The notes beneath the pieces are model-generated. The model was not told the origin of the DNA, made no database searches, and worked only from the letters and a program-made list of their open reading frames with translations. Below, piece by piece: positions 1-29,976 of a stretch of 54,239 bases of DNA (within the stretch, counting starts at the first letter, position 1; each line of letters begins with the position of its first letter). Source of the DNA: a bacterium (GTDB lineage Bacteria; Patescibacteriota; Minisyncoccia; Minisyncoccales; DG-74-3); NCBI GenBank assembly GCA_030603245.1, contig JAUVYE010000004.1, positions 1 to 54,239 of the forward strand, written 5' to 3'. The position numbers and the translations under genes were made by a program.

Positions 1-88
1 TTCCTTTTTTTGTACACGATTTTTGGAGCTTATATCGTCCTCCTTCTCTTATCCACTCCCAGATTGAAGTGATTGTCTCGAACTTCAT
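1..88 (-). CDS. Hypothetical protein, 5' part only (MKFETITSIWEWIREGG...), runs off the window
   Basis: ATG at 88-86, frame open to the window edge, downstream of TTGACA(132-127)-17nt-TATAAA(109-104). Confidence 0.45.
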   Translation of the reverse strand, partial: MKFETITSIWEWIREGGRYKLQKSCTKKG

Positions 89-103
89 TTTTAGTCTATT
101 TGC

Positions 104-132
104 TTTATATCTCCAAACTATAAATTTGTCAA
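104..132 (-). promoter_or_regulatory. sigma70-type promoter of the cassette left of site R1
   Basis: TTGACA-17 nt-TATAAA on the minus strand. Confidence 0.6.
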
Positions 133-140
133 TATTAAAA

Positions 141-159
141 CTCGAGAAAAACTCTTGGG
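141..159 (-). terminator. Degenerate copy of the conserved CCCGAGA-N5-TCTCGGG hairpin
   Basis: ctcgagaaaaactcttggg, followed by the same caaaaatacga spacer as the copy at 1981. Confidence 0.55.
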
Positions 160-170
160 CAAAAATACGA

Positions 171-204
171 GCTCCTCTGGTGCAACGTTGTTAGAACCTG
201 TTTT
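171..204 (+). repeat. att-like site R1
   Basis: gctcctctggtgcaacgttgttagaacctgtttt. Confidence 0.85.
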
Positions 205-343
205 ATATTGAATTAAATAAAAAAAGTGCCAAAGATGGGTATGGCACCTCTTTTGTTTTAATGTGGTTCAATTAATGTATTAATCCGAAACCTTGACAAA
301 TCGAGAAAAAATGATTAAAACAACATTAAAGAGGTGAGAATAG

Positions 344-724
344 TTGGAAAATGAAAAAACGAACCAGAACCGAACGACCATTATAACAATCCTCGTAATT
401 GTGGTCATTGTGGCTCTGGGAGCGTGGAGATATTCTGGCTGGTTCAAGGTTCACGAAGAACAAGTAGTTATCAAAGAAGCGATTAGGAAAACAGCTGGCG
501 GAGAAACCCGAGAGGTTGAATATTTCCTCTATACCAATAAAGGCTACTTCAAGGTTGGCGGCCCAGTAGATGCAGAAGGAATTCCCTATGTCTGGCAACT
601 TGCTAAAGAAAATGAAAGGAAGCTAGTGCTAATCAGATATTATGGAGGCGGCGTATGGCGTATAGATGCCTGGGGATACTATCCAGTCGCCTATGAAATA
701 CATTCTGTACCAGAAACATCCTAG
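344..724 (+). CDS. Membrane-anchored hypothetical protein (paralog of 750-1088)
   Basis: GAGGTG RBS before TTG, N-terminal TM helix, TTGACA at 293-298; shares T[ND]KGYF..GG/RG..D..GI..Y[YF]G..YP motifs with the next ORF. Confidence 0.75.
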   Translation: MENEKTNQNRTTIITILVIVVIVALGAWRYSGWFKVHEEQVVIKEAIRKTAGGETREVEYFLYTNKGYFKVGGPVDAEGIPYVWQLAKENERKLVLIRYYGGGVWRIDAWGYYPVAYEIHSVPETS

Positions 725-749
725 AATAAAGATCCGAGTGGTGTAAGAC

Positions 750-1088
750 TTGAATCGACGATTTAAAGCAACGATAATCCTCTTAACGCTCTTTGTTATC
801 TTCGGAGCATTGTTCTTCCTTCCTAAAACAGAAAAGGTTGTAGTTCTTGGAAAAATACAAAAAAAGAGCTGGTTCTCCCTTCCTGTTATAGCAGAAAACA
901 CGCTAACTCTCATTATATCAACTGACAAGGGTTATTTCTATGTTAGAGGAAAATTTGATTCAGATGGCATAAGACATATCTTCAAAAAGCTAGAAATCGG
1001 GAAAACTTACGAAATATCGTACTTTGGCCCCAGATGTAATGCTATCTATTTATACCCATTTATCTCTTCTTTTAAAAAAATTACATAA
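750..1088 (+). CDS. Membrane-anchored hypothetical protein (paralog of 344-724)
   Basis: N-terminal TM helix; TDKGYFYVRG, DSDGI, SYFG, LYP motifs shared with the upstream ORF. Confidence 0.7.
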   Translation: MNRRFKATIILLTLFVIFGALFFLPKTEKVVVLGKIQKKSWFSLPVIAENTLTLIISTDKGYFYVRGKFDSDGIRHIFKKLEIGKTYEISYFGPRCNAIYLYPFISSFKKIT

Positions 1089-1215
1089 ACCCTAACAATC
1101 TTCAGAAAATCTCTAGGAAGAAAAAGCTCCACACAAACAAAAGCTATGAATAATATTTTCATAGCCCTTTTTTTTAGCTTTTTTATCTAAAAAACAATCT
1201 AATTTTACAAAAAAA

Positions 1216-1234
1216 CCCGAGAAAAACTCTCGGG
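1216..1234 (-). terminator. Conserved hairpin CCCGAGA-AAAAC-TCTCGGG
   Basis: 7-bp perfect stem followed by a T-run on the minus strand. Confidence 0.7.
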
Positions 1235-1244
1235 CAAAATAGGT

Positions 1245-1278
1245 GCTCCGGGGGCTGGACGACATTAGAACCTGTTTT
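1245..1278 (+). repeat. att-like site R2
   Basis: gctccgggggctggacgacattagaacctgtttt. Confidence 0.85.
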
Positions 1279-1300
1279 ATGAGTCTTTAAAAACAGTTCA

Positions 1301-1561
1301 TTAGCACATAGATACAAACGAGGCGGCTAATAATCCCATAATTATTCCTAAAATTGCAAACCATTTCCCTTTTTGCTTTTTTGTTCTCATCCAAATTAAA
1401 GCTATTATTCCCATAAAAACAGCTCCTAGTCCAGCTATACTATTAACCTCAGAACCACATTCTTTGGCAGTAAATACATATACTAAAGCAAAAATTGCGA
1501 TTAGAAAACTAAAAATTGCTAAACCATTTGTCTCTTTCATGAATGTTTTAATTTTTTCCAT
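1301..1561 (-). CDS. Small membrane protein, DUF4190-like
   Basis: TNGLAIFSF...GIIAL...QKGKWFAILGIIMG pattern typical of DUF4190. Confidence 0.75.
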   Translation of the reverse strand: MEKIKTFMKETNGLAIFSFLIAIFALVYVFTAKECGSEVNSIAGLGAVFMGIIALIWMRTKKQKGKWFAILGIIMGLLAASFVSMC

Positions 1562-1610
1562 ATTATCTTATTTTACCAAAAAAACTAGCTAAGTGACAAG
1601 ACAAAAATTT

Positions 1611-1644
1611 GCTCCCCCTATTGGACGCGTTCAGAACTATTGAT
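1611..1644 (+). repeat. att-like site R3
   Basis: gctccccctattggacgcgttcagaactattgat; first 27 nt identical to R4. Confidence 0.8.
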
Positions 1645-1759
1645 TGGAGAAAAATTAAAGAAAAGCTTAGAAAATTAGAGCCTATTTTATTGAAGATTTA
1701 AATAAAAAAGGGGCTATCCTTGTTTTTAGATAAACCCGTAGGGACTTTTGAGTAGTAGT

Positions 1760-1924
1760 TCAGCTCTTCATGGAATTACATTTCAGACAATGCACACCCA
1801 TTGAAGTATGCTGACACTCTTCCTCTCTGTATTTTTGAGTAGCATGACATTCTATGTCTATCTTTCCTCTTACCTGCACTGGTAGACCGTTAATCAAGAG
1901 TTGCTGAAGTGGTGCCAATTTCAT
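1760..1924 (-). CDS. Small Cys/His-rich hypothetical protein (MKLAPLQ...HCLKCNSMKS)
   Basis: AAAGGAG RBS before ATG at 1924; TTGACA at 1966-1961; the longer ORF-track start overlaps the hairpin and is unlikely. Confidence 0.55.
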   Translation of the reverse strand: MKLAPLQQLLINGLPVQVRGKIDIECHATQKYREEECQHTSMGVHCLKCNSMKS

Positions 1925-1980
1925 TTCTCCTTTTTTGAAGATTATCAAATTCAAACAAATTGTCAATAACCAAGCAAAAA

Positions 1981-1999
1981 CCCGAGATAAACTCTCGGG
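1981..1999 (-). terminator. Conserved hairpin CCCGAGA-TAAAC-TCTCGGG
   Basis: 7-bp perfect stem plus T-run on the minus strand. Confidence 0.7.
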
Positions 2000-2010
2000 C
2001 AAAAATACGA

Positions 2011-2044
2011 GCTCCCCCTATTGGACGCGTTCAGAACCGTGGAT
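2011..2044 (+). repeat. att-like site R4
   Basis: gctccccctattggacgcgttcagaaccgtggat. Confidence 0.8.
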
Positions 2045-2212
2045 TGGAGGAAAATAAGGGAAGAATTGGAGATTTTCAGGATTAGAATGCCTGTGGTTAA
2101 ACGATGTTAGAGCCTGTTTTATAAGGAATTTGGCTTAAGATGCCGTTTTGAGTGTAGGGAAATTAAAAAAAAGCGGTCTGAGACTAGCTCATACCGTCCT
2201 TGATTCGTGAAT

Positions 2213-2491
2213 TTATTTCTCTTCTAGCCTAGTGACCCTTTCTTTTAATCTCTCGATCTCCCAATCTCGCTTTTCTTGCCTAGCTTGAGAGATAATAATT
2301 CCTAGTTTACCGAGTTCAAGCCTATTCTTGCACTTCCAACAATCCCTCAAATGATCTGTTGCTTCTCTTATTTCTCCATCTTTTGGATTAAAGATTTTCT
2401 CCCAAGTTTCTTCACTGATCGGAGCATTCAACAGGCTCTTAATTTCTTCTATTCTTTGATTAGTCAGGGTTCTAGCTTTTTTACAATCCAT
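2213..2491 (-). CDS. Small zinc-finger protein (zf-HC2/anti-sigma-like C...HxxxCxxC)
   Basis: AGGAG RBS before ATG at 2491; MDCKK...DHLRDCWKCK motif. Confidence 0.6.
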   Translation of the reverse strand: MDCKKARTLTNQRIEEIKSLLNAPISEETWEKIFNPKDGEIREATDHLRDCWKCKNRLELGKLGIIISQARQEKRDWEIERLKERVTRLEEK

Positions 2492-2564
2492 TATTCTTTC
2501 TCCTAAGGAACTGTCTTCTTTAAAATTCACAAAAAAAATCAAGTCCTGTAATGGCTTGGAGTTT

Positions 2565-2598
2565 GCTCCGGGGATGGTACAATATTAGAACTTGGTTT
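2565..2598 (+). repeat. att-like site R5 (divergent)
   Basis: gctccggggatggtacaatattagaacttggttt; GCTCC and AGAAC spacing conserved. Confidence 0.75.
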
Positions 2599-2674
2599 TG
2601 GGAAAATTTACCAGCGATTGAATCTAAACTCATTTTCCAGAAACACAAAATAGTATCAATCTAACCTTACTAAA

Positions 2675-3334
2675 TTATATATTAAAAGTACTAAGTAGCC
2701 AGGTAGTAAGCTTTGCTACATACGGTGCAATTGTCGCAATATTTGCCAACATTCCTAGATTTGCCTTTGCTTTTGCAAGAATACTAGTATCTGGTTCTTT
2801 TTTTGCGAGTTGGCTTTTTATAGTTTCTAAATCTCCTTGAATTGAAATTTTTTCTCCATCACTTAACTCTCCAAGCGCATTTACGCGACGACGCAAATCT
2901 TCAGCAAGCTTATGACCTTCTGAAAAAGCAATATTGGAAATACTCGTAACATTATTATTACTTCCAATAACTATAAAATTTCCGCTACCTGAAATGTCGC
3001 CAATTCCTGCAAAAACGTTAGAACGATCAAACTTTGATCCATGCTCAAAATAACCTAATCCGTCCCGAGAAAGTCTGTATTTATAAGTTGGTTTAGCACC
3101 TCCAAATTTCTTCTTTGCAAAATAGTTTTCAACAGGAATTTCTTCAACAAGTTTATTTTGCACTAAAAAAGTTACATTTGCTGCTACTTGATTTTCTTTT
3201 ATTTCCGATAAATGCTCTTTAACTAAACGAGCAAGATTGCGTACGCCAACCATTTGAGATGTACGACTTCTTCCACCCTGATGTAGCTGGTATAAGCTCT
3301 CTAGAATTTTCTCTCTTATTAAATCTTCTTCCAT
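2675..3334 (-). CDS. Hypothetical protein with winged-helix-like N-terminus and helical C-terminus
   Basis: 219-aa ORF; REKILESLY...FLVQNKLVE...YRLSRDGL resembles a wHTH. Confidence 0.7.
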   Translation of the reverse strand: MEEDLIREKILESLYQLHQGGRSRTSQMVGVRNLARLVKEHLSEIKENQVAANVTFLVQNKLVEEIPVENYFAKKKFGGAKPTYKYRLSRDGLGYFEHGSKFDRSNVFAGIGDISGSGNFIVIGSNNNVTSISNIAFSEGHKLAEDLRRRVNALGELSDGEKISIQGDLETIKSQLAKKEPDTSILAKAKANLGMLANIATIAPYVAKLTTWLLSTFNI

Positions 3335-3576
3335 ATTTTATTAAATTTATTAATTTTCTTAACAATATCATTTGTCGCCTTAAATTTATCATTTCTAATT
3401 TAAAAATCAAACCAACTTTCTTTTATCTTTTGTAGAAAAACTGTGGTTAAAATAAAAATCATAGGTAAAATCAGATCCGTCCAGTCAAAAAGAAAATCTG
3501 CTGTTCCCAAAGTCTAGGAAAAAAGGATTTCTAAATTAGAAATTTCAAAAATACTAGTAATGTCAACAAGTATATT

Positions 3577-3837
3577 CTACTTTCCTTTGTGTTGGCTTTT
3601 GGCTCCTTTTTCACGGTTTTCTTCCCAGTGCAGTGGCTGAAGGTTTCTTATATTGTCGGTTCCACCCTTGTCTTTGGGGTTTTTATGGTCAATTTCCCAT
3701 CCATATTTTCCTTCAGTCCCATATGAAGCTTTCCTGATCTTATTGCCATACGTATCTTTGCCCCATCCTTCTGGATTTTTCCCGCGAATAGGTTTTGCCT
3801 TATCCCACACTTTTTCTATTGTTTTTTTGGCAGGCAT
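3577..3837 (-). CDS. HNH endonuclease, small stand-alone type
   Basis: WEIDHKNP..KGGTDNIRNLQPLHWEENREK HNH motif. Confidence 0.9.
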   Translation of the reverse strand: MPAKKTIEKVWDKAKPIRGKNPEGWGKDTYGNKIRKASYGTEGKYGWEIDHKNPKDKGGTDNIRNLQPLHWEENREKGAKSQHKGK

Positions 3838-4007
3838 AGTAATTGAAAATTAATAAGAATTAGCGACCTTTAAAATAAAAACCGGGCCATCCCCGATTTG
3901 TCTTTTTGCTTAAATCGGAGGTGATAAAAGGTTAATGAACAGTAAAAATTATGTTTAAATTAACCTCCGATGGTGAAATATCTATTAAATTTTACCTTAT
4001 TGTAAGT

Positions 4008-4036
4008 AGTATAACATATTTTTACAAAATTTGCAA
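4008..4036 (-). promoter_or_regulatory. sigma70-type promoter upstream of the HNH gene
   Basis: TTGCAA(4036-4031)-17 nt-TATACT(4013-4008). Confidence 0.55.
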
Positions 4037-4103
4037 GTAAAAATTCGAACAAAAGCTCGGACTTATACAATTACATACAAATATATGCAATTTTATACAA
4101 TTA

Positions 4104-4137
4104 GCTCCCCTGATGCAACGTTGTTAGAACCTGTTTT
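4104..4137 (+). repeat. att-like site R6
   Basis: gctcccctgatgcaacgttgttagaacctgtttt; right arm near-identical to R1. Confidence 0.85.
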
Positions 4138-4192
4138 GTATTGAGTTAAATAAAAAAACCATCCAGTCGATGATTAAAAAAATGGGTGGGTA

Positions 4193-4534
4193 TTAGTTTT
4201 TTCGAGGCACTAGCACTTTATCGATCGATGACAGTCTAAGTCCATTTTCTTTGCAGAACGCTTGGAACTCCTGTTGTGTTTCAAAACACATCTCAACAAT
4301 ACTAGCATTAGTTAGTGTTGTTATATCCCCTAGATCATGATATTTTACGATCGTTACGTAGGCAATCTTACGACCACTTTTATAGTTTAAGACATGAGCA
4401 CGTGTCACAATCTTTGTGTCTATATAATTTTCCAATACCCACCCTGGAGTTGAGGTAGAATAAACCGTTATTCCTTCGATTGTGTCAAAACACCTGCTCC
4501 AAAGTTTATTTAAAAGAGCGATTATCTGCCTCAT
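4193..4534 (-). CDS. Hypothetical protein
   Basis: Fills the R6-R7 cassette; promoter TCGACA(4576-4571)-17-TATAAT(4553-4548) favours ATG 4534 over TTG 4543. Confidence 0.6.
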   Translation of the reverse strand: MRQIIALLNKLWSRCFDTIEGITVYSTSTPGWVLENYIDTKIVTRAHVLNYKSGRKIAYVTIVKYHDLGDITTLTNASIVEMCFETQQEFQAFCKENGLRLSSIDKVLVPRKN

Positions 4535-4582
4535 TTTTATCAACTAAATTATAACAAACAGAATATTATTTGTCGATAACTT

Positions 4583-4616
4583 GCTCCCCTGGCGGGACGA
4601 TGTTAGAACCTGTTTT
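4583..4616 (+). repeat. att-like site R7
   Basis: gctcccctggcgggacgatgttagaacctgtttt. Confidence 0.85.
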
Positions 4617-4827
4617 ATATTCAATTAAATCAAAAAACCGCCTATTAAGCGATTTTTTAATTCTCTTAATTTCTCCCCTTTTTCCAACTAATAATAGTAT
4701 GATTATTAGCTCGAAAAAAATTAGGGGAGAAGTAAGTTATTGGCTTAGTGAAAAAAGGGTGAATTTAAGGTACGATTGATTTTGTGCTCACAAAAATCTG
4801 CAAGAGTAATAAAGCCTATAATTCATT

Positions 4828-5322
4828 TCATTTGAAGAGATCAAGCACATTAGTCTTCACTGCGTCTTCAGCTGCTTTAGCTATCTCTGCCAGTGTCCCC
4901 GTCGACTTTAATGCTTCGGCCGTGATCACAAATATCATTGTTGCAGGATCGCCATCACTAACCCACACAATACCTCTATCTGTGAGCTCGTCATCCACGT
5001 CGCGGAAACTAATGTTTATTGTTTGCACTGGTACTTCTTCGCCTCTGGGGTTACACGACACCCCGATGTCATCGCCTCTGACTAGATCGATCTGTTCACC
5101 TGAACTGATCAACCTCACAATTTCTTTTCCAGGCTCGACGCCTCTTAAAACTTTCGCCTCAAGAGAAATCGGAAGTTTCGCTGTCAACCTAGCTAGCTCA
5201 AATTCGAATGTGGGTTTTTCAGCAGACAGAAGAGCACTCTCCAAGTCTTTTGTTTCAACGTTCTTCTGTGGATTTTCTGAAGCATCCTTTTTAGCCCATT
5301 GAATCCAAATATTATATTCTAT
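4828..5322 (-). CDS. Hypothetical protein; the frame stays open to an ATA codon at 5322 behind a strong SD
   Basis: AGGAGGAGG upstream of ATA; promoter TTGACT(5370-5365)-17-TAGTTT; the ORF track starts at TTG 5244. Confidence 0.55.
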   Translation of the reverse strand: MEYNIWIQWAKKDASENPQKNVETKDLESALLSAEKPTFEFELARLTAKLPISLEAKVLRGVEPGKEIVRLISSGEQIDLVRGDDIGVSCNPRGEEVPVQTINISFRDVDDELTDRGIVWVSDGDPATMIFVITAEALKSTGTLAEIAKAAEDAVKTNVLDLFK

Positions 5323-5378
5323 GGTTTTTCCCTCCTCCTAAAAACTACCAAATTGGCATGACCAAGTCAATACTAAAA

Positions 5379-5397
5379 CCCGAGATAAACTCTCGGG
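5379..5397 (-). terminator. Conserved hairpin CCCGAGA-TAAAC-TCTCGGG
   Basis: Identical to the copy at 1981. Confidence 0.7.
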
Positions 5398-5447
5398 CAA
5401 TATATCCACAACTTAACTCCCTATTTTAATTTAATTTCCACACATTA

Positions 5448-5481
5448 GCTCCGGGGGCTGGACGATGTTAGAACCTGTTTT
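5448..5481 (+). repeat. att-like site R8
   Basis: gctccgggggctggacgatgttagaacctgtttt; near-identical to R2. Confidence 0.85.
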
Positions 5482-5539
5482 GCCTTATAAAAAACAAAAC
5501 CGCCCCTTTAAAGAGACGGTTTTGCAATAATTAGTTCTA

Positions 5540-6100
5540 TTATTTTTCGTGTCCTTTGCTTTGAATCGGCATACCAATATGAGATTGAGCAGCTTCTTGT
5601 TTGTCTTCCTGTGAACTGACATATTGTCCGTGATTTCCTGTGAATTGCGTTGACTCTCTTGTAGCTGTACCTACAGTGGTCGTCCATGTACCCCCACGGG
5701 CTCCAAAACAATTATCTGTCCAAGTGCCACTAATTTTACCATCAACATCAATTTCTCCAACTAGAGTAAACGAGCAAGAAAGTAAATCATAATCAGCAGT
5801 CATATTAAAATCACTACCATCGACTAAACCATTGGTTACAGTCCATGGATACTGATAAGGTTCGATTGCTGAAAAGGCTCCACCACTACCTTCAAGCGTA
5901 CCATCTTCAGCTTGTACCAAATTCATGTCATGAAGGTTGGTACCTTCCATATAATGATAATCAAAAACCCAAACTCCGTTAACATCCCATGGTCCGTATT
6001 CTACTGGTCCTGGAACTCTGTCAACTTTTGCTCCTGCGATATTTACTAGAGCAAATAAAGACAGGGTTAATATAATGCTTCCAAAAATTATTTTTTTCAT
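5540..6100 (-). CDS. Secreted hypothetical protein (signal peptide, beta-rich)
   Basis: MKKIIFGSIILTLSLFALVNIAGA signal peptide; promoter TTGACT(6178-6173)-17-TAGTCT. Confidence 0.8.
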   Translation of the reverse strand: MKKIIFGSIILTLSLFALVNIAGAKVDRVPGPVEYGPWDVNGVWVFDYHYMEGTNLHDMNLVQAEDGTLEGSGGAFSAIEPYQYPWTVTNGLVDGSDFNMTADYDLLSCSFTLVGEIDVDGKISGTWTDNCFGARGGTWTTTVGTATRESTQFTGNHGQYVSSQEDKQEAAQSHIGMPIQSKGHEK

Positions 6101-6179
6101 AATTTTCTAATTTAATTTTTATTTTTCGACTTTGGCTTTTCTTACTTTTAGACTAAAACTCATTTATTGAAAAGTCAAA

Positions 6180-6198
6180 CCCGAGAAAAACTCTCGGG
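6180..6198 (-). terminator. Conserved hairpin CCCGAGA-AAAAC-TCTCGGG
   Basis: Identical to the copy at 1216. Confidence 0.65.
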
Positions 6199-6208
6199 CT
6201 TTTAAAAA

Positions 6209-6242
6209 ACTCCCCTGGCGGGACGATGTTAGAACCTGTTTC
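6209..6242 (+). repeat. att-like site R9
   Basis: actcccctggcgggacgatgttagaacctgtttc; right arm identical to R7 over ~32 nt. Confidence 0.85.
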
Positions 6243-6376
6243 ATTAAAACAAAATGGTCTTTTGATATACTGATTTTAGCTAATCCTTAGTTTACCCTAC
6301 CCTTCAACTCACTATTTATTTAAAAAATTGAAAAACAAGAAAAAAATGGTAAAATAATTTAATTATTTCTAAATTC

Positions 6377-6601
6377 ATGAAAGAACGAGAAGAAAAAATT
6401 ATTCGTACTATTTATCACGAAGAGACTAATCGTTTCTTCAAATCAATTGGGTTGTCTGAAAAATTAGAGAAGGGTGAACTCCAGTGCAATGTCTGTGGTG
6501 AAATAATAACAGTTACCAACTTTAGAGCAGTCACCCGTAAGGAGGGTGATTTGCTTTTCTGTTGTGATAAAGAATTATGTATGCAGAAATTTAGAACATG
6601 A
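6377..6601 (+). CDS. Small zinc-binding protein (CxxC...CCxxxxC)
   Basis: CNVCGE...FCCDKELC; ATGA overlap with the next gene. Confidence 0.75.
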   Translation: MKEREEKIIRTIYHEETNRFFKSIGLSEKLEKGELQCNVCGEIITVTNFRAVTRKEGDLLFCCDKELCMQKFRT

Positions 6602-7734
6602 ACACGAATTGGTTAAAATACATATTTGAATATGGACCATTAGCTTTAGCTATCCCTATATTCGAGTATTTTGGAACATCAGGTTTGATTTTCTTTATAC
6701 TTATAATAGTTATAATTCGTTTATTTGCGATAATACTAGATAAAGATCTTAATGAACGTTGGCGAGCGCGGTTCTACAAAATAATATATAAAATAAACGG
6801 AAGTAGTAATGCAGAGAAAAAATATATAGAAAATAATGCCTGTAGTCGTCTCAATCTTGCACGTCGCAAAATGCCATTCGAGAAAGAATATCTACCTAAG
6901 GCGATAAGAATAGAATGGTTTGGTGATAAAATAGGAAAAACTGCACAAATCAAAGAAAATGAAATTCTCATCCGTCTTGATCCAGCGGAAAGACAAGAAA
7001 AAAATATAGTTTTACTCGCCGATGCTTTAGTTAAAGAAACCTCTCTTATTGGGATTAGACATATTTTAAATGAAGCCTCAGAGGCTTCAATGGATTTAAA
7101 TCTCGTAAAAAGTCTACTTAAGGAAACTGGTGATAGAAAAATTTTGGATTGGTTCTTACGTAACGAATATCAAACAGCTTTAGGAAAAATAAATGGAATC
7201 GGGAAGTGGAACGAAGCGATTGTAGAAATTGATGAAAGGGGTCTATTTACCAGACTATTGCTTGTAGAACTAGAGTGGTTCTCTAAAAGAATTTCAGGCA
7301 GATCTTCTCCAGAATTTTTCAAAGAGGTTATAGGCTTGGTTAAATTCCTCTATAAAATAGCAACTAAGGTTTATAAACAAGATGTACCCTTAGAATATAC
7401 TTCACGAAATATAAAAATCGGCGTCATTCTTGTGGGAAAAACGAGTAAAATTCTTCGTAGAGGAATTGAACCTTTTTTGAAAGCGTTCATGTATCAAATA
7501 CAAAAACAGTTTACTTCGATATATGTTATTGAATTTGATAAAGAATTACTTGGTGTTTCAGACCCAAAAGCACATGAATACTTTATGAATTTAACGAAAA
7601 GCCTAACCAAGGAAATAGAGAAACGATTTGAAATTAAAAAGGACTTCGATCTTTCCTATGACTGCATTGACTCTATGGGTAGAAAAAGGCATGCAAAAAT
7701 TTGCCATTATATTCCTCACTATGCATTTTTTTAA
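6598..7734 (+). CDS. Hypothetical protein with N-terminal TM segment and large soluble domain
   Basis: 378-aa ORF translationally coupled to the upstream Zn protein. Confidence 0.8.
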   Translation: MNTNWLKYIFEYGPLALAIPIFEYFGTSGLIFFILIIVIIRLFAIILDKDLNERWRARFYKIIYKINGSSNAEKKYIENNACSRLNLARRKMPFEKEYLPKAIRIEWFGDKIGKTAQIKENEILIRLDPAERQEKNIVLLADALVKETSLIGIRHILNEASEASMDLNLVKSLLKETGDRKILDWFLRNEYQTALGKINGIGKWNEAIVEIDERGLFTRLLLVELEWFSKRISGRSSPEFFKEVIGLVKFLYKIATKVYKQDVPLEYTSRNIKIGVILVGKTSKILRRGIEPFLKAFMYQIQKQFTSIYVIEFDKELLGVSDPKAHEYFMNLTKSLTKEIEKRFEIKKDFDLSYDCIDSMGRKRHAKICHYIPHYAFF

Positions 7735-7773
7735 TAAAACAGCCTAGCGATGGGCTTTTAACTAATTCAAAAC

Positions 7774-7798
7774 AAAACAGGGTTTTTGACCCTGTTTT
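7774..7798. terminator. Rho-independent terminator-like hairpin
   Basis: aaaacaggg-tttttga-ccctgtttt. Confidence 0.65.
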
Positions 7799-7807
7799 CG
7801 CTTCTGA

Positions 7808-7830
7808 GCTCCGGCAATCGGACTCGAACC
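7808..7830 (-). other. tRNA 3'-end fragment (Asn/Gln type, U1-A72 with G73); att-like site R10 closing the array
   Basis: Minus strand GGTTCGAGTCCGATTGCCGGAGC = T-loop, 3' T-stem, acceptor strand and discriminator; the 5' part of the tRNA is absent. Confidence 0.65.
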
Positions 7831-7855
7831 TCCACCTAATAAGCACTTGATATGT

Positions 7856-8470
7856 TTAATCTAATAGTTTTTCCAATTCAACAATATCAGAAATCAAATA
7901 GTCTGGATTAGCTGCTTCTAACATTTCTTTTGGTTTGTGGCCCCAAGATATTCCTATTGATACTACACCTCCTTTTTTTCCAGCTTTAATATCATGTGAC
8001 ATATCCCCTACGTATATGGTTTCTTCTGGCTGAAAATTATTCCTTTGAAGAATCTCTGTAATCACTTTTGCTTTATCAAGGATATTCCCATTTATTTCCT
8101 GAAAATAATCAAACACTCTATATCTTTTAGCGTCTGCGATTATTTTTTCCTGAGAACCAGAACTCATTATAACCAGTTTAATTCCTTTATCGTACAATCT
8201 TTTAAGCACATCTTTTACCCCTGGATATAATCCTGTGTCACCAGACGCATCAAGACCTTCTCTAAAAAGCTTAAGTATTTGATCTTTAGTACAATCTGGA
8301 AAATGTTTTTTCCAGAAATTCATATAGGGCAGAGAGAATTTCTTTCTATACTCTTTAAAAGACATGGGCTTAACACCCAATTTTTCAAAAACATACATTG
8401 TAGCCTTATAAATTGTTGTCAGGTCATCCATCAGAGTTCCTGACCAATCAAATAGAATATTTTTAATCAT
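7856..8470 (-). CDS. HAD-superfamily hydrolase (phosphoglycolate phosphatase-like)
   Basis: LFDWSGTL motif I; YVGDMSHDI motif IV. Confidence 0.9.
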   Translation of the reverse strand: MIKNILFDWSGTLMDDLTTIYKATMYVFEKLGVKPMSFKEYRKKFSLPYMNFWKKHFPDCTKDQILKLFREGLDASGDTGLYPGVKDVLKRLYDKGIKLVIMSSGSQEKIIADAKRYRVFDYFQEINGNILDKAKVITEILQRNNFQPEETIYVGDMSHDIKAGKKGGVVSIGISWGHKPKEMLEAANPDYLISDIVELEKLLD

Positions 8471-8554: not shown

Positions 8555-8983
8555 TTACAATGCTTCCTCTTCTCCACCTTTTTCAAGAACCGTAAACTGT
8601 TCTATTAGTTTTAAGATTTCTCTGTACTCTGTGCCTTCAACGCCCTTGAGAGAAGCAATAAATGCTAATTGCTTAAGAATCCTTATTACTGAAGTATATA
8701 TTCCTTGTTCTAAATCAACTATTCCATGCTCATAATGTTCTATTTTCTCTTCCAAAGCAGGAATTTCCCTCTTAAGCCTTTCTAATTTTCTTTTGACACG
8801 TTCTTGCAAAAGAGGTATGAAGGGCTTTTTCCAAAAAGGAACAGAAGATAATTCTGAGCACAATTTTGAGAAAGTTTTTGTTGCTTTCTCGTGCTCCTTT
8901 GTCTTATTTACAAGCTCCTGTTTTAGTTGGTTTAGTTCATTTTTAAAAAGTTGCATTGTTTTTTCTATAAAATCGTCGGTCAC
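8555..8983 (-). CDS. Hypothetical coiled-coil protein
   Basis: 142-aa ORF with GAAGGTG RBS; downstream hairpin near 8513-8538. Confidence 0.6.
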   Translation of the reverse strand: MTDDFIEKTMQLFKNELNQLKQELVNKTKEHEKATKTFSKLCSELSSVPFWKKPFIPLLQERVKRKLERLKREIPALEEKIEHYEHGIVDLEQGIYTSVIRILKQLAFIASLKGVEGTEYREILKLIEQFTVLEKGGEEEAL

Positions 8984-9091
8984 CCATTCACACCTTCTTT
9001 TTTTTAATGAACCTTTAATTTCTTTCTACCACTCAAACATAAAAAAAACAAGCCCCATAGAGCTTGTCTTTAAAATATTTAAAAAAATAAA

Positions 9092-9808
9092 TTATAATCC
9101 GATAAATTCTTTGATTTTACTAACAGGAATAGAAACAACTTTTCCGTCCTTATTAATCTGATTTAAACCTACAATATTAGCATAAATATCAAATAACGGA
9201 CTTCCGGCTAAAGTGTTTTGTTCAAAAATATTAGTTTCAATTAAATTATCATCAAAACTTTTAACAATTCCCTGGTTAACTGTTTTTTTAAGCCCTGCTT
9301 TTTCAAACACTATTCCCATTAAAAAAACTCTTTGGCCTAATTTAATTTTTCCAAAATCAGCAAAACTAAGAGTTGGTAAATTAGATTTTTCAACTTTGAT
9401 TAAGGCTAAGTTTTCTTTGACGTCTCTTTTTAAAATCTGAAAATCAGCCAATTCTTCATCCACAAAAAAACTAAAAACAGAACCTTTCGGAACCAAATCA
9501 TTCAAAGTCACAAAAAGTCCGTCTGAAGTAACAATAAGGCCTGAACCTTGTAAAATAATGCCATCAACCGTCTGAGTTCTAACCCCAACTATTGTGTTTT
9601 CTACTCTCTCAATTGCATCTTGAAGAGCAGTATTTTCAGTAACTGTAATTTCTTTTATTTCAGTCACATAAATTGGGGTTTGTTCTAATCGATATTCAGA
9701 AAAAAGAGGTTTTTCCACAAAATAGGGCCAGAGAATCTGATCAGCAAAAATACCACCCGCTATTCCAAAAATAAAAAGAAAAAGAATTTTATAGATTTTT
9801 TTAAACAT
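9092..9808 (-). CDS. Membrane-anchored trypsin-like (HtrA-type) protease-domain protein, probably inactive
   Basis: GSGLIVTSDG, LALIKVE; lacks the catalytic His and the GNSGG motif. Confidence 0.75.
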   Translation of the reverse strand: MFKKIYKILFLFIFGIAGGIFADQILWPYFVEKPLFSEYRLEQTPIYVTEIKEITVTENTALQDAIERVENTIVGVRTQTVDGIILQGSGLIVTSDGLFVTLNDLVPKGSVFSFFVDEELADFQILKRDVKENLALIKVEKSNLPTLSFADFGKIKLGQRVFLMGIVFEKAGLKKTVNQGIVKSFDDNLIETNIFEQNTLAGSPLFDIYANIVGLNQINKDGKVVSIPVSKIKEFIGL

Positions 9809-9810
9809 AA

Positions 9811-12501
9811 TTATTTTACAGCAACTTTTTTTCTTTTACCCTCAACTAATTTTTTGGGAATCAAGAAAACAATTTTTCCATTGTCTGAATCAATCCTGAC
9901 ATTGCCCCCTTCCACAACTTCACCAACAACAATCTTTAATGACAAAGGATCTAAAACTAATTTCTGAATTATTCTTTTAAGGGGTCTGGCTCCAAAATTA
10001 GGGCTAAAACCTTTTTTAGCTAAAACTTGTTTAGCGTTTTCACTAAATTGAATCTTAATTCCCTTGTTTTTTAAACGAGAAGCTACTTTAGCCAGTTCTA
10101 AATCAACTATTTTCCTGATTTCTTTTTTACCAAGATAATTGAAAATAATAATTTCATCAATCCTGTTCAAAAACTCGGGTCTTAATCTTTCTTTTAAAGC
10201 TTCCATTACTTTTTCTTTTAAAGATGTTTTCTCTTTTTCTTCTTTTTCTCCGAAAAACCCAAGAGAACCCATTTTAGAAATATATTGAGACCCAAGATTA
10301 GAAGTCATAATCAAAATTGAATTCTTAAAAGAAGCAGTCCTGCCCTTAGCATCAGTCAATCTTCCATCTTCTAAAATCTGAAGCAAGATATTAAAAACTT
10401 CAGGATGAGCTTTTTCAACTTCATCCAATAAAATTACACTATAAGGCCTTCTTCTGATTTTATCCGTAAGCTGACCTCCTTCTTCATAACCAACATAACC
10501 AGGAGGAGAACCAATCATTTTAGAAACAGTGTGACGCTCCATATATTCTGACATATCAAGCTGCACCAAAGCATTTTCATCATTAAATAGAAATTCAGCC
10601 AAAGCCCTGGCTGTTTCTGTTTTGCCCACTCCAGTTGGTCCTAAAAACAGAAAAGAGCCCAAAGGTCTGTTTTCTTCTGAAATCCCAGCTCTTGAGCGCC
10701 GAATAGCATTGGAAACTGCTGAAATTGCTTCTTCTTGACCAATAACTCGATGAGAAATAATCTCTTCCATTCTCTTTAATTTTTGAGCTTCTTTTTCTAA
10801 AAGCTGGGTGGCTGGAATTCCGGTCCATTGAGAAATAATCTTAGCTATGTCTTCAGTCTCAATCTCTTCTTTCAAAAGAGGATGGTTTTTTTGAAGCCGA
10901 GCTAATTTTCTTTCAGTTTTCCTTAAATCTTTTTGAAGCTGAGGAATTTTTCCATATTTTATCTCAGCTACTTTTTCAAGATCAGCTTGAGCTGTTCCTC
11001 TTTCTGCTTCTAAACGAGCCGAATCAATTTCTTGTTTAAGCTTTTTAATATTGGTAATAGTTTCTCTTTCAAGCTTCCATTTAGCTTCAATGTTTTTAGC
11101 TTTTTCTTTTAAGTCAGCTAATTGCCGAACAATAACTTTTTGTTTTAATTCAGATTTTTTCTCTTTTTTAATGGCTTGTTTTTCAATTTCTAATTTACGA
11201 ATTTGCTTTTTTAGTTCCTCCAAAGCAACTGGTTCTGATTCAATATCCAATCTCAAAGAACTCATTGCCTCGTCCATTAAATCAACTGCTTTGTCTGGCA
11301 AAAATCTATCAGTAATATAACGGGCAGCTAATTGAGCGCAAGCTAATATGGCTGAATCAGTAATTCTAACTCCATGATGAACTTCATATTTTTCCTTAAT
11401 ACCCCTTAAAATAGCAACCGTATCATCAATAGTGGACTCAGCAACATAAATTGGCTGGAATCTTCTTTCTAAGGCAGGGTCTTTTTCAATATATTTTTGA
11501 TATTCTTTTAAAGTAGTAGCTCCAATTGCCTTTAATTCTCCGCGAGACAAAGCAGGCTTTAAAAGATTAGAAGCATCAATAGCTCCCTCAGCTGCTCCAG
11601 CCCCAACTAAAGTATGTAATTCATCAATAAATAAAACATACTTGCCCTCAGCTTTCTCAACCTCTTTTAACAGAGCTTTAACTCTGTTTTCAAACTCTCC
11701 TCTATATTTAGTGCCAGCCACCAAAGCTCCTAAATCCAAAGCAATAATTTCCTTTTCTTTTAAGCTTTCAGGAACTTCATGGTGAATAATTCTTTGAGCC
11801 AAACCCTCAACAATAGCTGTTTTTCCAACCCCGGCTTCTCCAATTAAAACTGGATTATTTTTGGTTCTACGAGAAAGAACCTGCATTAATCTTCTGATTT
11901 CATTTTCTCTGCCAATAACTGGGTCTAATTTACCTTGCTTGGCTAAAGAGGTTAAATTGCGGGCATATTTTTCAATAACCTGATATTTTGATTCAGGATT
12001 AGGGTCAGTAATTTTTTCTCCTCCCCTAATTTCATTAAAAATTTCTAAAGCAGTGTCATAATTCAAAGATTTTTTTTCCAAAAGAGCTCCTTTTGATTCT
12101 AAGAAATTAGCTTTTTCCAAAACTTCTTTGGCTTTAGTAGGACTGTCTAAAAGAGCTAAAAACAGATGTTCGACTGAAATATACTGATCACCCATTTTAA
12201 TTGATTCCTGGCGAGCTCTTTCCAAAACCTTAGCCATATCTTGAGTTAAATAAACCTGACCAAAAGATTGAGGACTAATAATAGGTGAGATTCCTTCTAA
12301 AGATTTTTTGGTTTTATTCTTCAAATCATCAATATTTACGTTCAGCTTTAAAAGCAAACTTAAAACAATGCTCTCCCCTTGTAAGAGCAAAGAGTATAAA
12401 AGGTGCAAAGCATCAATCTGTTGCTGTCCTTTTTTACGAGCAATTGATTGAGCTTTTAAAATTGCCTCTTGAGCTTTTTGAGTAAAATTACCTCCAATCA
12501 T
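9811..12501 (-). CDS. clpB: ATP-dependent chaperone ClpB
   Basis: Clp-N domain; two Walker A motifs ([16 protein letters not shown]); long middle coiled-coil. Confidence 0.93.
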
Positions 12502-29889: not shown

Positions 29890-29976
29890 GCCGAAGTGGC
29901 GGAACTGGTTTACGCGTAGGTCTCAAAAACCTATGAGAGCAATCTCATGTGGGTTCAACTCCCACCTTCGGCACCA
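29890..29976 (+). tRNA. tRNA-Leu (CAA)
   Basis: GCCGAAG/CTTCGGC acceptor stem, TAGGT-CT-CAA-AA-ACCTA anticodon arm, long variable arm, GGTTCAACTCC, A73 plus encoded CCA. Confidence 0.96.

Follow-up and report, generated by a model that had tools for sequence, protein, structure and literature searches.

What are the short tRNA-like repeats that separate unrelated small genes in the first 7.9 kb of a patescibacterial contig, and how did such an array come about? The DNA in question, referred to here as the window, is a stretch of 54,239 nucleotides (NCBI GenBank assembly GCA_030603245.1, contig JAUVYE010000004.1) that forms the first 54 kb of contig C5, taken from the contig end, with no sequence to the left of position 1. 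The genome to which it belongs (G000) comprises 548 kb in 26 contigs, has about 33% GC and is 98% complete. A preliminary description of the window had proposed an integron-like array of gene cassettes delimited by ten tRNA-like attachment (att) sites in one orientation. Our analysis of the window, its genome and its relatives leads us to propose, with a probability of about 45%, that the sites are composite att-type junctions of integrase-less cassettes, which would be recombined in trans.

The ten site starts and nine intervals of the preliminary description were all correct, and the sites themselves fall into different classes. Six of them (171, 1245, 4104, 4583, 5448 and 6209) fit the 34-nt consensus at 0-3 mismatches, a match found 0 times in 100 dinucleotide shuffles; those at 1611, 2011 and 2565 are variants, and the one at 7808 is a decayed 3' half of tRNA-Asn. 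The recurring unit comprises about 36 nt and consists of a left arm of about 12 nt (GCTCC followed by N7 in the window) and a universal right arm of 21-24 nt. The universal arm reads GGACGATGTTAGAACCTGTTT, followed by a weaker T-D-R-T (the DRT ending), and is near-invariant in all loci recovered; as these loci come from collection scans with exact 19-21-mers, which return conserved copies only, they show the spread of the arm and not its degree of conservation. The left arm, taken on the other strand, corresponds to the terminal part of a tRNA: the 3' strands of the T stem and of the acceptor stem, then the discriminator base and a single further base. Arms of the types GCTCC... (Asn), GCTG(G/C)GG... 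(Gln), GGGT(C/G)G... (His) and GGC(A/G)G... (Ser) were found, and among typed units with a head tRNA in the locus the arm type equals the type of that tRNA in 48 of 55 cases (Asn 27/30, Gln 9/10, His 6/9, Ser 6/6), counts that take several units per array and are therefore not independent. Relative to a genuine T arm (GGTTCGAGTCC), the loop of the unit (GGTTCTAACATCGTCC) is extended by 5 nt, and inspection of the sequence shows its two T-stem strands to be non-complementary. In the tRNA sense an intrinsic-terminator-like hairpin follows each unit at 10-40 nt, and a terminator often precedes the unit too. The left modules (hairpin, spacer and arm) are nearly identical inside a genome and differ between genera; one 15-nt right-hand module occurs with Asn-type and with His-type left arms, and one left module occurs with different right flanks.

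The locus is one of many. The arrays described in the preliminary account are real, and they are not unique to this place: the genome contains 22 copies of the unit in six clusters within its 548 kb, 12 of the copies being on contigs C4, C14, C16, C21 and C25, and the motif is widespread in records labelled Patescibacteria. The cluster on C4 lies beside tRNA-Asp/Met, that on C14 downstream of tRNA-His and that on C21 downstream of tRNA-Asn; overall, arrays were found downstream of tRNA-Asn, tRNA-Gln and tRNA-His. Counted at up to 3 mismatches, the motif is present in 16 of 41 genomes of the order with up to 22 copies each, while a reversed control pattern gave 1 match. The exact 19-mer returned at least 119 stretches from a collection with one genome per species, in which about 9 chance matches are expected in 596 Gb by our own arithmetic. 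The record titles name Paceibacteria/Parcubacteria, Nealson-, Colwell-, Levy-, Curtiss- and Moranbacteria, bins labelled 'Saccharibacteria' and a few other phyla; the matches labelled as other phyla may be chance or binning errors. Among metagenome contigs the exact 21-mer returned at least 109 stretches. The scan of the genome revealed clusters and not a genome-wide scatter of the kind made by repetitive extragenic palindromic (REP) elements. A REP element or a miniature inverted-repeat transposable element was also rejected as the identity of the unit, which is not palindromic and has its 22 copies in 6 regions; as had been claimed, no copy occurs in the other 46 kb of the window (7.9-54 kb).

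The outer limits of the unit were drawn with four unrelated metagenome runs, which carry 6-7% of the sampled words and are present as assembled contigs. The 7-14 contigs per run have only 5448-5480 in common and diverge on both sides of unit 8; the sides at these joints are short (20-35 nt, 85% likeness), probably derive from other organisms, and were used for unit boundaries only. Contigs C5 and C21 have their first 140 nt in common (97.5% over 159 nt) and diverge afterwards. This looks like a branch of the assembly graph, which would represent either a repeat present in two loci or variants of the array tail in two parts of the population. At several array heads (L089, L179, L193 and L220, in about 80 nt next to the 3' end of tRNA-Asn), the 3' ends of tRNA-Asn were missed by ARAGORN and run into conserved non-tRNA sequence, which suggests that these tRNA-Asn genes may contain introns.

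Between neighbouring units of the same orientation, 132 of 174 spacings measure 300-2000 bp and 17 of 174 less than 100 bp, with a median of about 700 bp. The spacings in the window (366-1599 bp) are gene-sized, not the uniform 25-50 bp of clustered regularly interspaced short palindromic repeats (CRISPR), and the earlier exclusion of CRISPR stands. Reading frames also agree with one or two small genes per interval, in either gene orientation. As for the gene names given before, HNH passes the Pfam cut-off and DUF4190 (E 2.4e-5) is below it; family searches of the window cassettes returned only the HNH endonuclease, the weak DUF4190 and a weak candidate defence family. Clustering of 2172 frames from unit-bearing loci revealed no recurrent partner protein, with no family in more than 12 loci. 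Three loci with Colwellbacteria-type labels (L119 40-330, L069 and L078) have tandem doublets or triplets of units with an exact 55-nt period and no gene between.

Comparison with a close relative showed that array content changes quickly. At the same locus in G002 the adjoining core genes are 91-95% identical to those of the window and the content of the island is different, as the preliminary description had led one to expect; left of the gene for a HAD-type protein, G002 has unrelated DNA save for one degenerate unit and a hairpin, and site 10 is absent. Cassettes are common to genomes of different families at 80-96% DNA identity and also to two arrays of one genome. One such similarity links G000:C25 609-3056 to L036 (G029:C3) 8906-11353, with 95.6% identity over 2.4 kb between different families and a match that begins inside a Gln-type unit; it reflects either recent transfer or a mis-binned 3-kb contig (C25 has 36% GC, the genome about 33%).

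The best positive evidence for the unit as a recombination joint came from a linkage test on 529 units. In pairs that have only the left flank in common (24), the left arm is in common (0.67-1.00 versus a background of 0.28-0.60) and positions 22-24 are not. In pairs with only the right flank in common (7), positions 22-24 are in common (0.71-1.00 versus 0.33-0.41) and the left arm is intermediate (0.29-1.00). This pattern indicates that the left and right sides of the unit reassort, and it places the point of reassortment inside the near-invariant 21-mer.

Which enzyme would carry out such recombination? The genome encodes one tyrosine recombinase, on contig C22 (50.1-51.1 kb), which is Xer-like by NCBIfam with scores below the equivalog cut-offs, and no serine recombinase; G035, a single 516-kb contig with 22 units, likewise has one Xer-like tyrosine recombinase and no serine recombinase. 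A PF00589 match was found in 38 of the 41 genomes, usually in exactly one gene per genome, and in the 16 unit-bearing genomes the Xer-like gene nearest to a unit is about 10 kb away (G004, G034). BLASTP with the genome's Xer against 773 frames of at least 180 amino acids (aa) within 5 kb of units, in 228 loci, detected one match, an Xer orthologue (L161). A catalytic-box pattern applied to 283 loci (1.63 Mb) gave two, the same orthologue and a fragment in L191. The fragment (L191 3747-4145, minus strand) preserves only the catalytic C-terminal half of a tyrosine recombinase, in truncated form; it lies at a distance of 60-480 nt from a unit, on the side of the universal arm, and has no close relative in 401 genomes of the class. 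Family, BLASTP and motif searches thus bear out the claim that the arrays hold no recombinase gene, and for a recombinase linked to the motif in any genome we found only the L161 orthologue within 5 kb and the truncated piece in L191. Y1 transposases were absent from four of five genomes tested (G000, G003, G035 and G029), and in the search for Y2 enzymes the control matched 0 of 14 control genomes. A scan with a dif consensus found the unit partly alike in one subfamily only, and such a scan is not discriminating in an AT-rich genome. We infer the Xer-like protein to be the candidate enzyme solely from its being the only known recombinase present. Two scans of IMG/VR for phage attachment sites (attP) found no phage with the motif, only L046, L047 and L048. 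L046 14600-14819 is part of a 52% GC contig with a perfect unit in its AT-rich terminal 110 nt and no Rfam match, and it may be a chimeric assembly; L047 and L048 were rejected as attP, as their matches lie inside coding sequence and look like chance.

These searches bear on another explanation, namely that the units are inactive attR/attP scars of integrase-carrying elements, resembling phages, integrative and conjugative elements or tycheposons, that were serially integrated at tRNAs and whose integrases have been lost. Arrays beside tRNA genes, tRNA-typed partial repeats and flanks like the downstream flanks of tRNAs are the classical pattern of such integration, and the truncated recombinase half beside one unit in L191 would fit it. 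The tycheposons of Prochlorococcus, according to their description (bioRxiv 10.1101/2020.12.28.424599), likewise integrate in tandem at tRNAs, with degenerate remnants and scattered partial tRNAs. We nevertheless consider scars unlikely. No integrase or integrase fragment lies within 5 kb of units in the 16 unit-bearing genomes and next to none in the 228 and 283 loci; the L191 fragment is without close relatives in the 401 genomes of the class, and IMG/VR contributed no motif-carrying phage. Inactive scars should decay, whereas the 21-mer is near-identical in all loci recovered by exact-word scans, and cassettes of 0.4-1.6 kb are far smaller than such elements.

Several observations weigh against recombination of cassettes at the units. 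No head tRNA lies inside the recovered stretch of the locus for 259 of 331 units. Judged by eye, most left arms differ from the acceptor stem of the tRNA beside them, although they agree with it in some lineages; they cannot therefore be the product of plain serial integration at this tRNA. The linkage test comprises few pairs, which are not independent. Among the contigs and genomes compared we found no excision, no circle, no empty site and no insertion or deletion (indel) that runs from unit to unit; the cassette-precise indels foreseen in the preliminary description did not appear, and the sole within-genome indel, of about 1.46 kb between C5 and C21 after their first 140 nt, extends from terminator hairpin to terminator hairpin. 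In one cassette common to two families the homology covers the gene and its promoter region and stops before the hairpins and units on both sides. With regard to the enzyme, a six-frame search with PF00589 gave no match closer than 5 kb to any unit in the 16 unit-bearing genomes, and the Xer-like gene is present in 23 of 25 relatives that do not have the motif and hence does not co-vary with the units. The genome contains no palindromic, dif-style version of the universal arm, and the unit is without a clear pair of inverted binding sites.

Some of these data would be accommodated if no dedicated recombinase existed and the unit with its terminator module (about 35-110 bp) acted as a homology anchor, at which RecA-type swaps exchange DNA taken up by natural transformation and through which anchor-carrying cassettes spread. 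Natural competence of Saccharibacteria, as stated in PMC10187176, would supply the DNA uptake that this requires. Reassortment of flanks around a conserved core agrees with such swaps; left modules that are near-identical within a genome and different between genera are what gene conversion would give, and the C5/C21 indel spans two copies of a repeated hairpin. Homology anchors leave unexplained, however, the conservation of the core in distant lineages, the tRNA-derived arm and the single orientation of the units. In addition, a core of 21-24 bp is at or under the usual minimum length for efficient homologous recombination, and we regard anchoring by homology as rather improbable.

A unit with an altogether different function was considered next to these explanations, and RNA and coding features were assessed in alignments of 96 and later 366 distinct copies and in 213 non-exact copies. 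Rfam returned no family for the unit at gathering thresholds, only noise at E up to 10 on positions 1-8200, and only true tRNAs in other arrays. No Watson-Crick covariation was detected by mutual information in or around the unit in 366 copies, which upholds the statement that the sites are not attC, these copies having no covarying palindromic structure. A tRNA or transfer-messenger RNA (tmRNA) gene was rejected, as ARAGORN and Rfam find one tRNA in the window, at 29890, and none in 1-8200 at E up to 10; a likeness to the 5' end of tmRNA was also discarded, the genome's own tmRNA (C7) being different past the acceptor stem. Coding was rejected as well: a period-3-like variation in the first 96 copies dissolved in the 213 non-exact copies. 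Frames around units are short open stretches with no consistent starts or lengths, stops are not enriched after the unit (91 stops versus 130 TTA/TTG/TGG), and a test of substitution classes clearly favoured no frame.

On this view the unit might act as an insulator or terminator to which a protein binds, as a small RNA or as a site with replication polarity, and would accumulate in flexible islands built by other means. Strong conservation and strict co-orientation with the adjacent tRNA would suit such a role, as would the terminator-like hairpins that bracket the units and the gene-less tandem doublets and triplets with their 55-nt period. In two single-contig genomes (G035 and G034) the strand of the units switches at dnaA, from plus on one side to minus on the other, and their tRNA sense always runs with the direction of replication inferred from the position of dnaA; tRNA genes are usually co-oriented with replication too. 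Yet an RNA or a coding role is contradicted by the absence of an Rfam family at E up to 10, of covariation in 366 copies, of a consistent frame and of any excess of stops behind the unit relative to similar sense codons. Furthermore, units lie between cassettes regardless of gene orientation, and clustering beside tRNAs with tRNA-typed arms is unexpected for a generic regulatory site. A function apart from recombination therefore seems to us improbable.

Along the window, all units are on the plus strand. Unit 1 (171..206) has its left arm, GCTCC and N7, at 171-182 and its universal arm from 183 in a CAAC variant, with 3 mismatches in all; behind it come a conserved 15-nt spacer and a hairpin. 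Cassette 1 (344..1088, plus strand) holds two frames, of 126 and 112 aa, whose N-termini are hydrophobic and which match no Pfam family. Unit 2 (1245..1280) has 2 mismatches, and its N7, GGGGGCT, is that of unit 8. An intrinsic-terminator-like hairpin at 1215..1235 (minus strand), with the stem CCCGAG/CTCGGG, is part of the repeated left module and stands 10-40 nt from the unit; further copies of the hairpin are at 141-159, 1980-2000, 5378-5398 and 6180-6198, and terminator-like sites number 12 in total compared with 5.2 +/- 2.6 in shuffles. Cassette 2 (1301..1561, minus strand) encodes an 86-aa membrane protein, the one with the DUF4190 match below the Pfam cut-off.

Unit 3 (1611..1692) is a 'double' variant, comprising a left arm, a divergent right arm (GGACGCGTTCAGAAC...) and, near 1668-1692, a second arm that is degenerate. 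The left flank of this unit (1547-1615) is similar to the sequence that truly lies downstream of tRNA-Asn on C21 (80% over 69 nt, C21 7321-7387). Unit 4 (2011..2122) is also double, with a left arm and divergent right arm at 2011-2046 and, beyond about 50 nt of inserted sequence, another universal arm at 2099-2122, which matches over 2099-2120 with 3 mismatches and has no tRNA-like left arm. Double units with inserts of 40-60 nt occur in the window (2011-2122) and in G035 and G029. Between the arms of double units (2020-2112 and 1620-1700 in the window; L106, L108, L008 and L014) we noticed a conserved peptide-like frame with conservative substitutions; no convincing start codon was found for it in sites 3 and 4 or in these four loci. 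Cassette 4 (2213..2542, minus strand) encodes a 109-aa protein of no family.

Unit 5 (2565..2600) is the variant GCTCCGGGGATGGTACAATATTAGAACTTGGTTTT, which occurs on C4 and C21 too. Cassette 5 (2675..3837, minus strand) encodes a 219-aa protein and the 86-aa HNH endonuclease; the former (2675-3334, minus strand) weakly matches the candidate anti-phage family PDC-M14B in PADLOC (E 7.6e-8). Unit 6 (4104..4139) matches the consensus, and its left flank (4026-4102) is 87% identical to the stretch directly downstream of tRNA-Asp on C4. Cassette 6 (4193..4543, minus strand) encodes a 116-aa protein, and the best promoter-like site of the region (4576-4548) lies between its start codon and unit 7. 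Unit 7 (4583..4618) has 0 mismatches and the same N7, CCTGGCG, as unit 9. It is followed by cassette 7 (4828..5244, minus strand), with a 138-aa protein of no family, by unit 8 (5448..5483), an exact consensus match, and by cassette 8 (5540..6100, minus strand), with a 186-aa protein that has a signal-peptide-like N-terminus. Unit 9 (6209..6244) matches the consensus, and positions 6081-6252 are 88% identical to an array in the same-genus genome G003. In cassette 9 (6377..7734, plus strand) a 74-aa Cys-rich protein overlaps the start of a 378-aa protein, neither having a family.

Site 10 (7808..7850, minus strand), at the array head, resembles the 3' half of a tRNA-Asn in decayed form; its T loop is normal, and it has no universal arm. 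It directly adjoins the stop codon of the HAD-type core gene (7856-8470). The site is called as a tRNA by neither ARAGORN nor Rfam, and the fragment recurs in the metagenome locus L255. Conserved fragments from the 3' part of tRNA-Asn, with a normal T loop and one and the same acceptor sequence, were seen in several lineages (L032 11881 in G035, L020, L102 and L218). This second fragment type sits at or inside arrays without an intact head tRNA, and site 10 is of the same kind.

Recombination at composite junctions would operate as follows. Self-contained cassettes bounded by units would be stacked head to tail downstream of tRNA genes, and they would be inserted, lost and reshuffled by conservative site-specific recombination, with the universal arm as the place of crossover. 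This would be done by a recombinase acting in trans. The only known candidate is the single tyrosine recombinase of the host, which is Xer-like; the alternatives are a helper element and an enzyme not yet recognised. A probable origin of the arrays is recombination with genuine tRNA genes in the region of their T loop, which would explain both the tRNA-typed arms and the left flanks that resemble tRNA downstream flanks. A wider proposal, which we regard as doubtful, is that an integron counterpart peculiar to Patescibacteria is spread through much of this phylum, in which a 21-bp core and a mimic of a tRNA end would serve to capture, stack and shuffle recombinase-free mini-cassettes with promoter and terminator beside tRNAs by a host enzyme in trans, most plausibly Xer-like.

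Patescibacteria have tiny genomes with few recognisable mobile elements and accessory genes mostly of unknown function, and how they gain and exchange genes is an open question. In the literature searched, which was limited to chosen terms and mainly to abstracts, we found no description of such arrays in this group. A short conserved site that marks stacks of cassettes would reveal their flexible gene pool directly from sequence, and the 21-mer would offer a handle with which cassettes could be recovered selectively from metagenomes, much as integron cassettes are with attC primers. Should the host Xer act on the units, a further housekeeping recombinase would prove to have been put to use in capturing genes, and an integron counterpart would amount to an accessory-gene pool shared between lineages with minimal genomes. 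Even if the units were only scars, they would remain a useful marker of genomic islands in Patescibacteria.

How do the arrays compare with known systems? Small recombinase-free modules with short conserved sites, moved by the host Xer in trans, are known from integrative mobile elements exploiting Xer (IMEX) and from the pdif modules of Acinetobacter plasmids; a dif-like site measures 28-31 bp, with two inverted Xer-binding arms on either side of a 6-8-bp centre. The cassettes described here are likewise small and recombinase-free, in a genome with a single Xer-like gene as its only tyrosine recombinase; unlike those modules, they have no palindromic counterpart of the site, their arrays are not at one terminus site, and all units are direct repeats rather than alternating. 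With tRNA-targeting elements such as tycheposons, the arrays have in common islands next to tRNAs, tandem accretion and partial-tRNA repeats as copies of the attachment site, and tycheposons too occur in small streamlined genomes without classical mobile elements and carry cargo mostly of unknown function. Such elements have their own tyrosine or serine recombinase, often replication genes, and a size of several kb, whereas the cassettes here measure 0.4-1.6 kb and have no recombinase. Nor is the repeat a plain partial tRNA, for in it a tRNA arm is joined to a universal 21-24-mer and the T loop is extended by 5 nt. Of the features of a tRNA island, the tRNA neighbour and the direct repeats of tRNA 3' ends are present and, the L191 fragment aside, an element-encoded integrase is absent.

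Integrons and clusters of attC sites lacking integron-integrases (CALIN) are similar in their one-directional arrays of unrelated gene-sized cassettes, their conserved repeat of recombination-site type and their fast turnover, and their arrays too can occur without an adjacent integrase. The patescibacterial arrays differ in having no platform of intI, attI and the promoter Pc, although CALINs also have no intI and its absence alone is not excluding. They differ as well in a unit without the imperfect palindrome of attC, which folds as a single strand, or its structure (no covariation), in cassettes with terminators of their own, at least one promoter-like site and genes in either orientation, in one site arm that comes from a tRNA 3' end, and in several arrays per genome beside tRNA genes. 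Of the integron-like platform proposed for the window, the one-orientation arrays of unrelated gene-sized cassettes, the tRNA-derived sites, the fast turnover and the reassortment hold, and the single platform does not. Having neither attC structure nor intI, and no element-encoded integrase, the arrays fall outside the definitions of both integrons and tRNA-targeting elements; they most resemble integrons and CALINs in function and tRNA-targeting integrative elements in origin.

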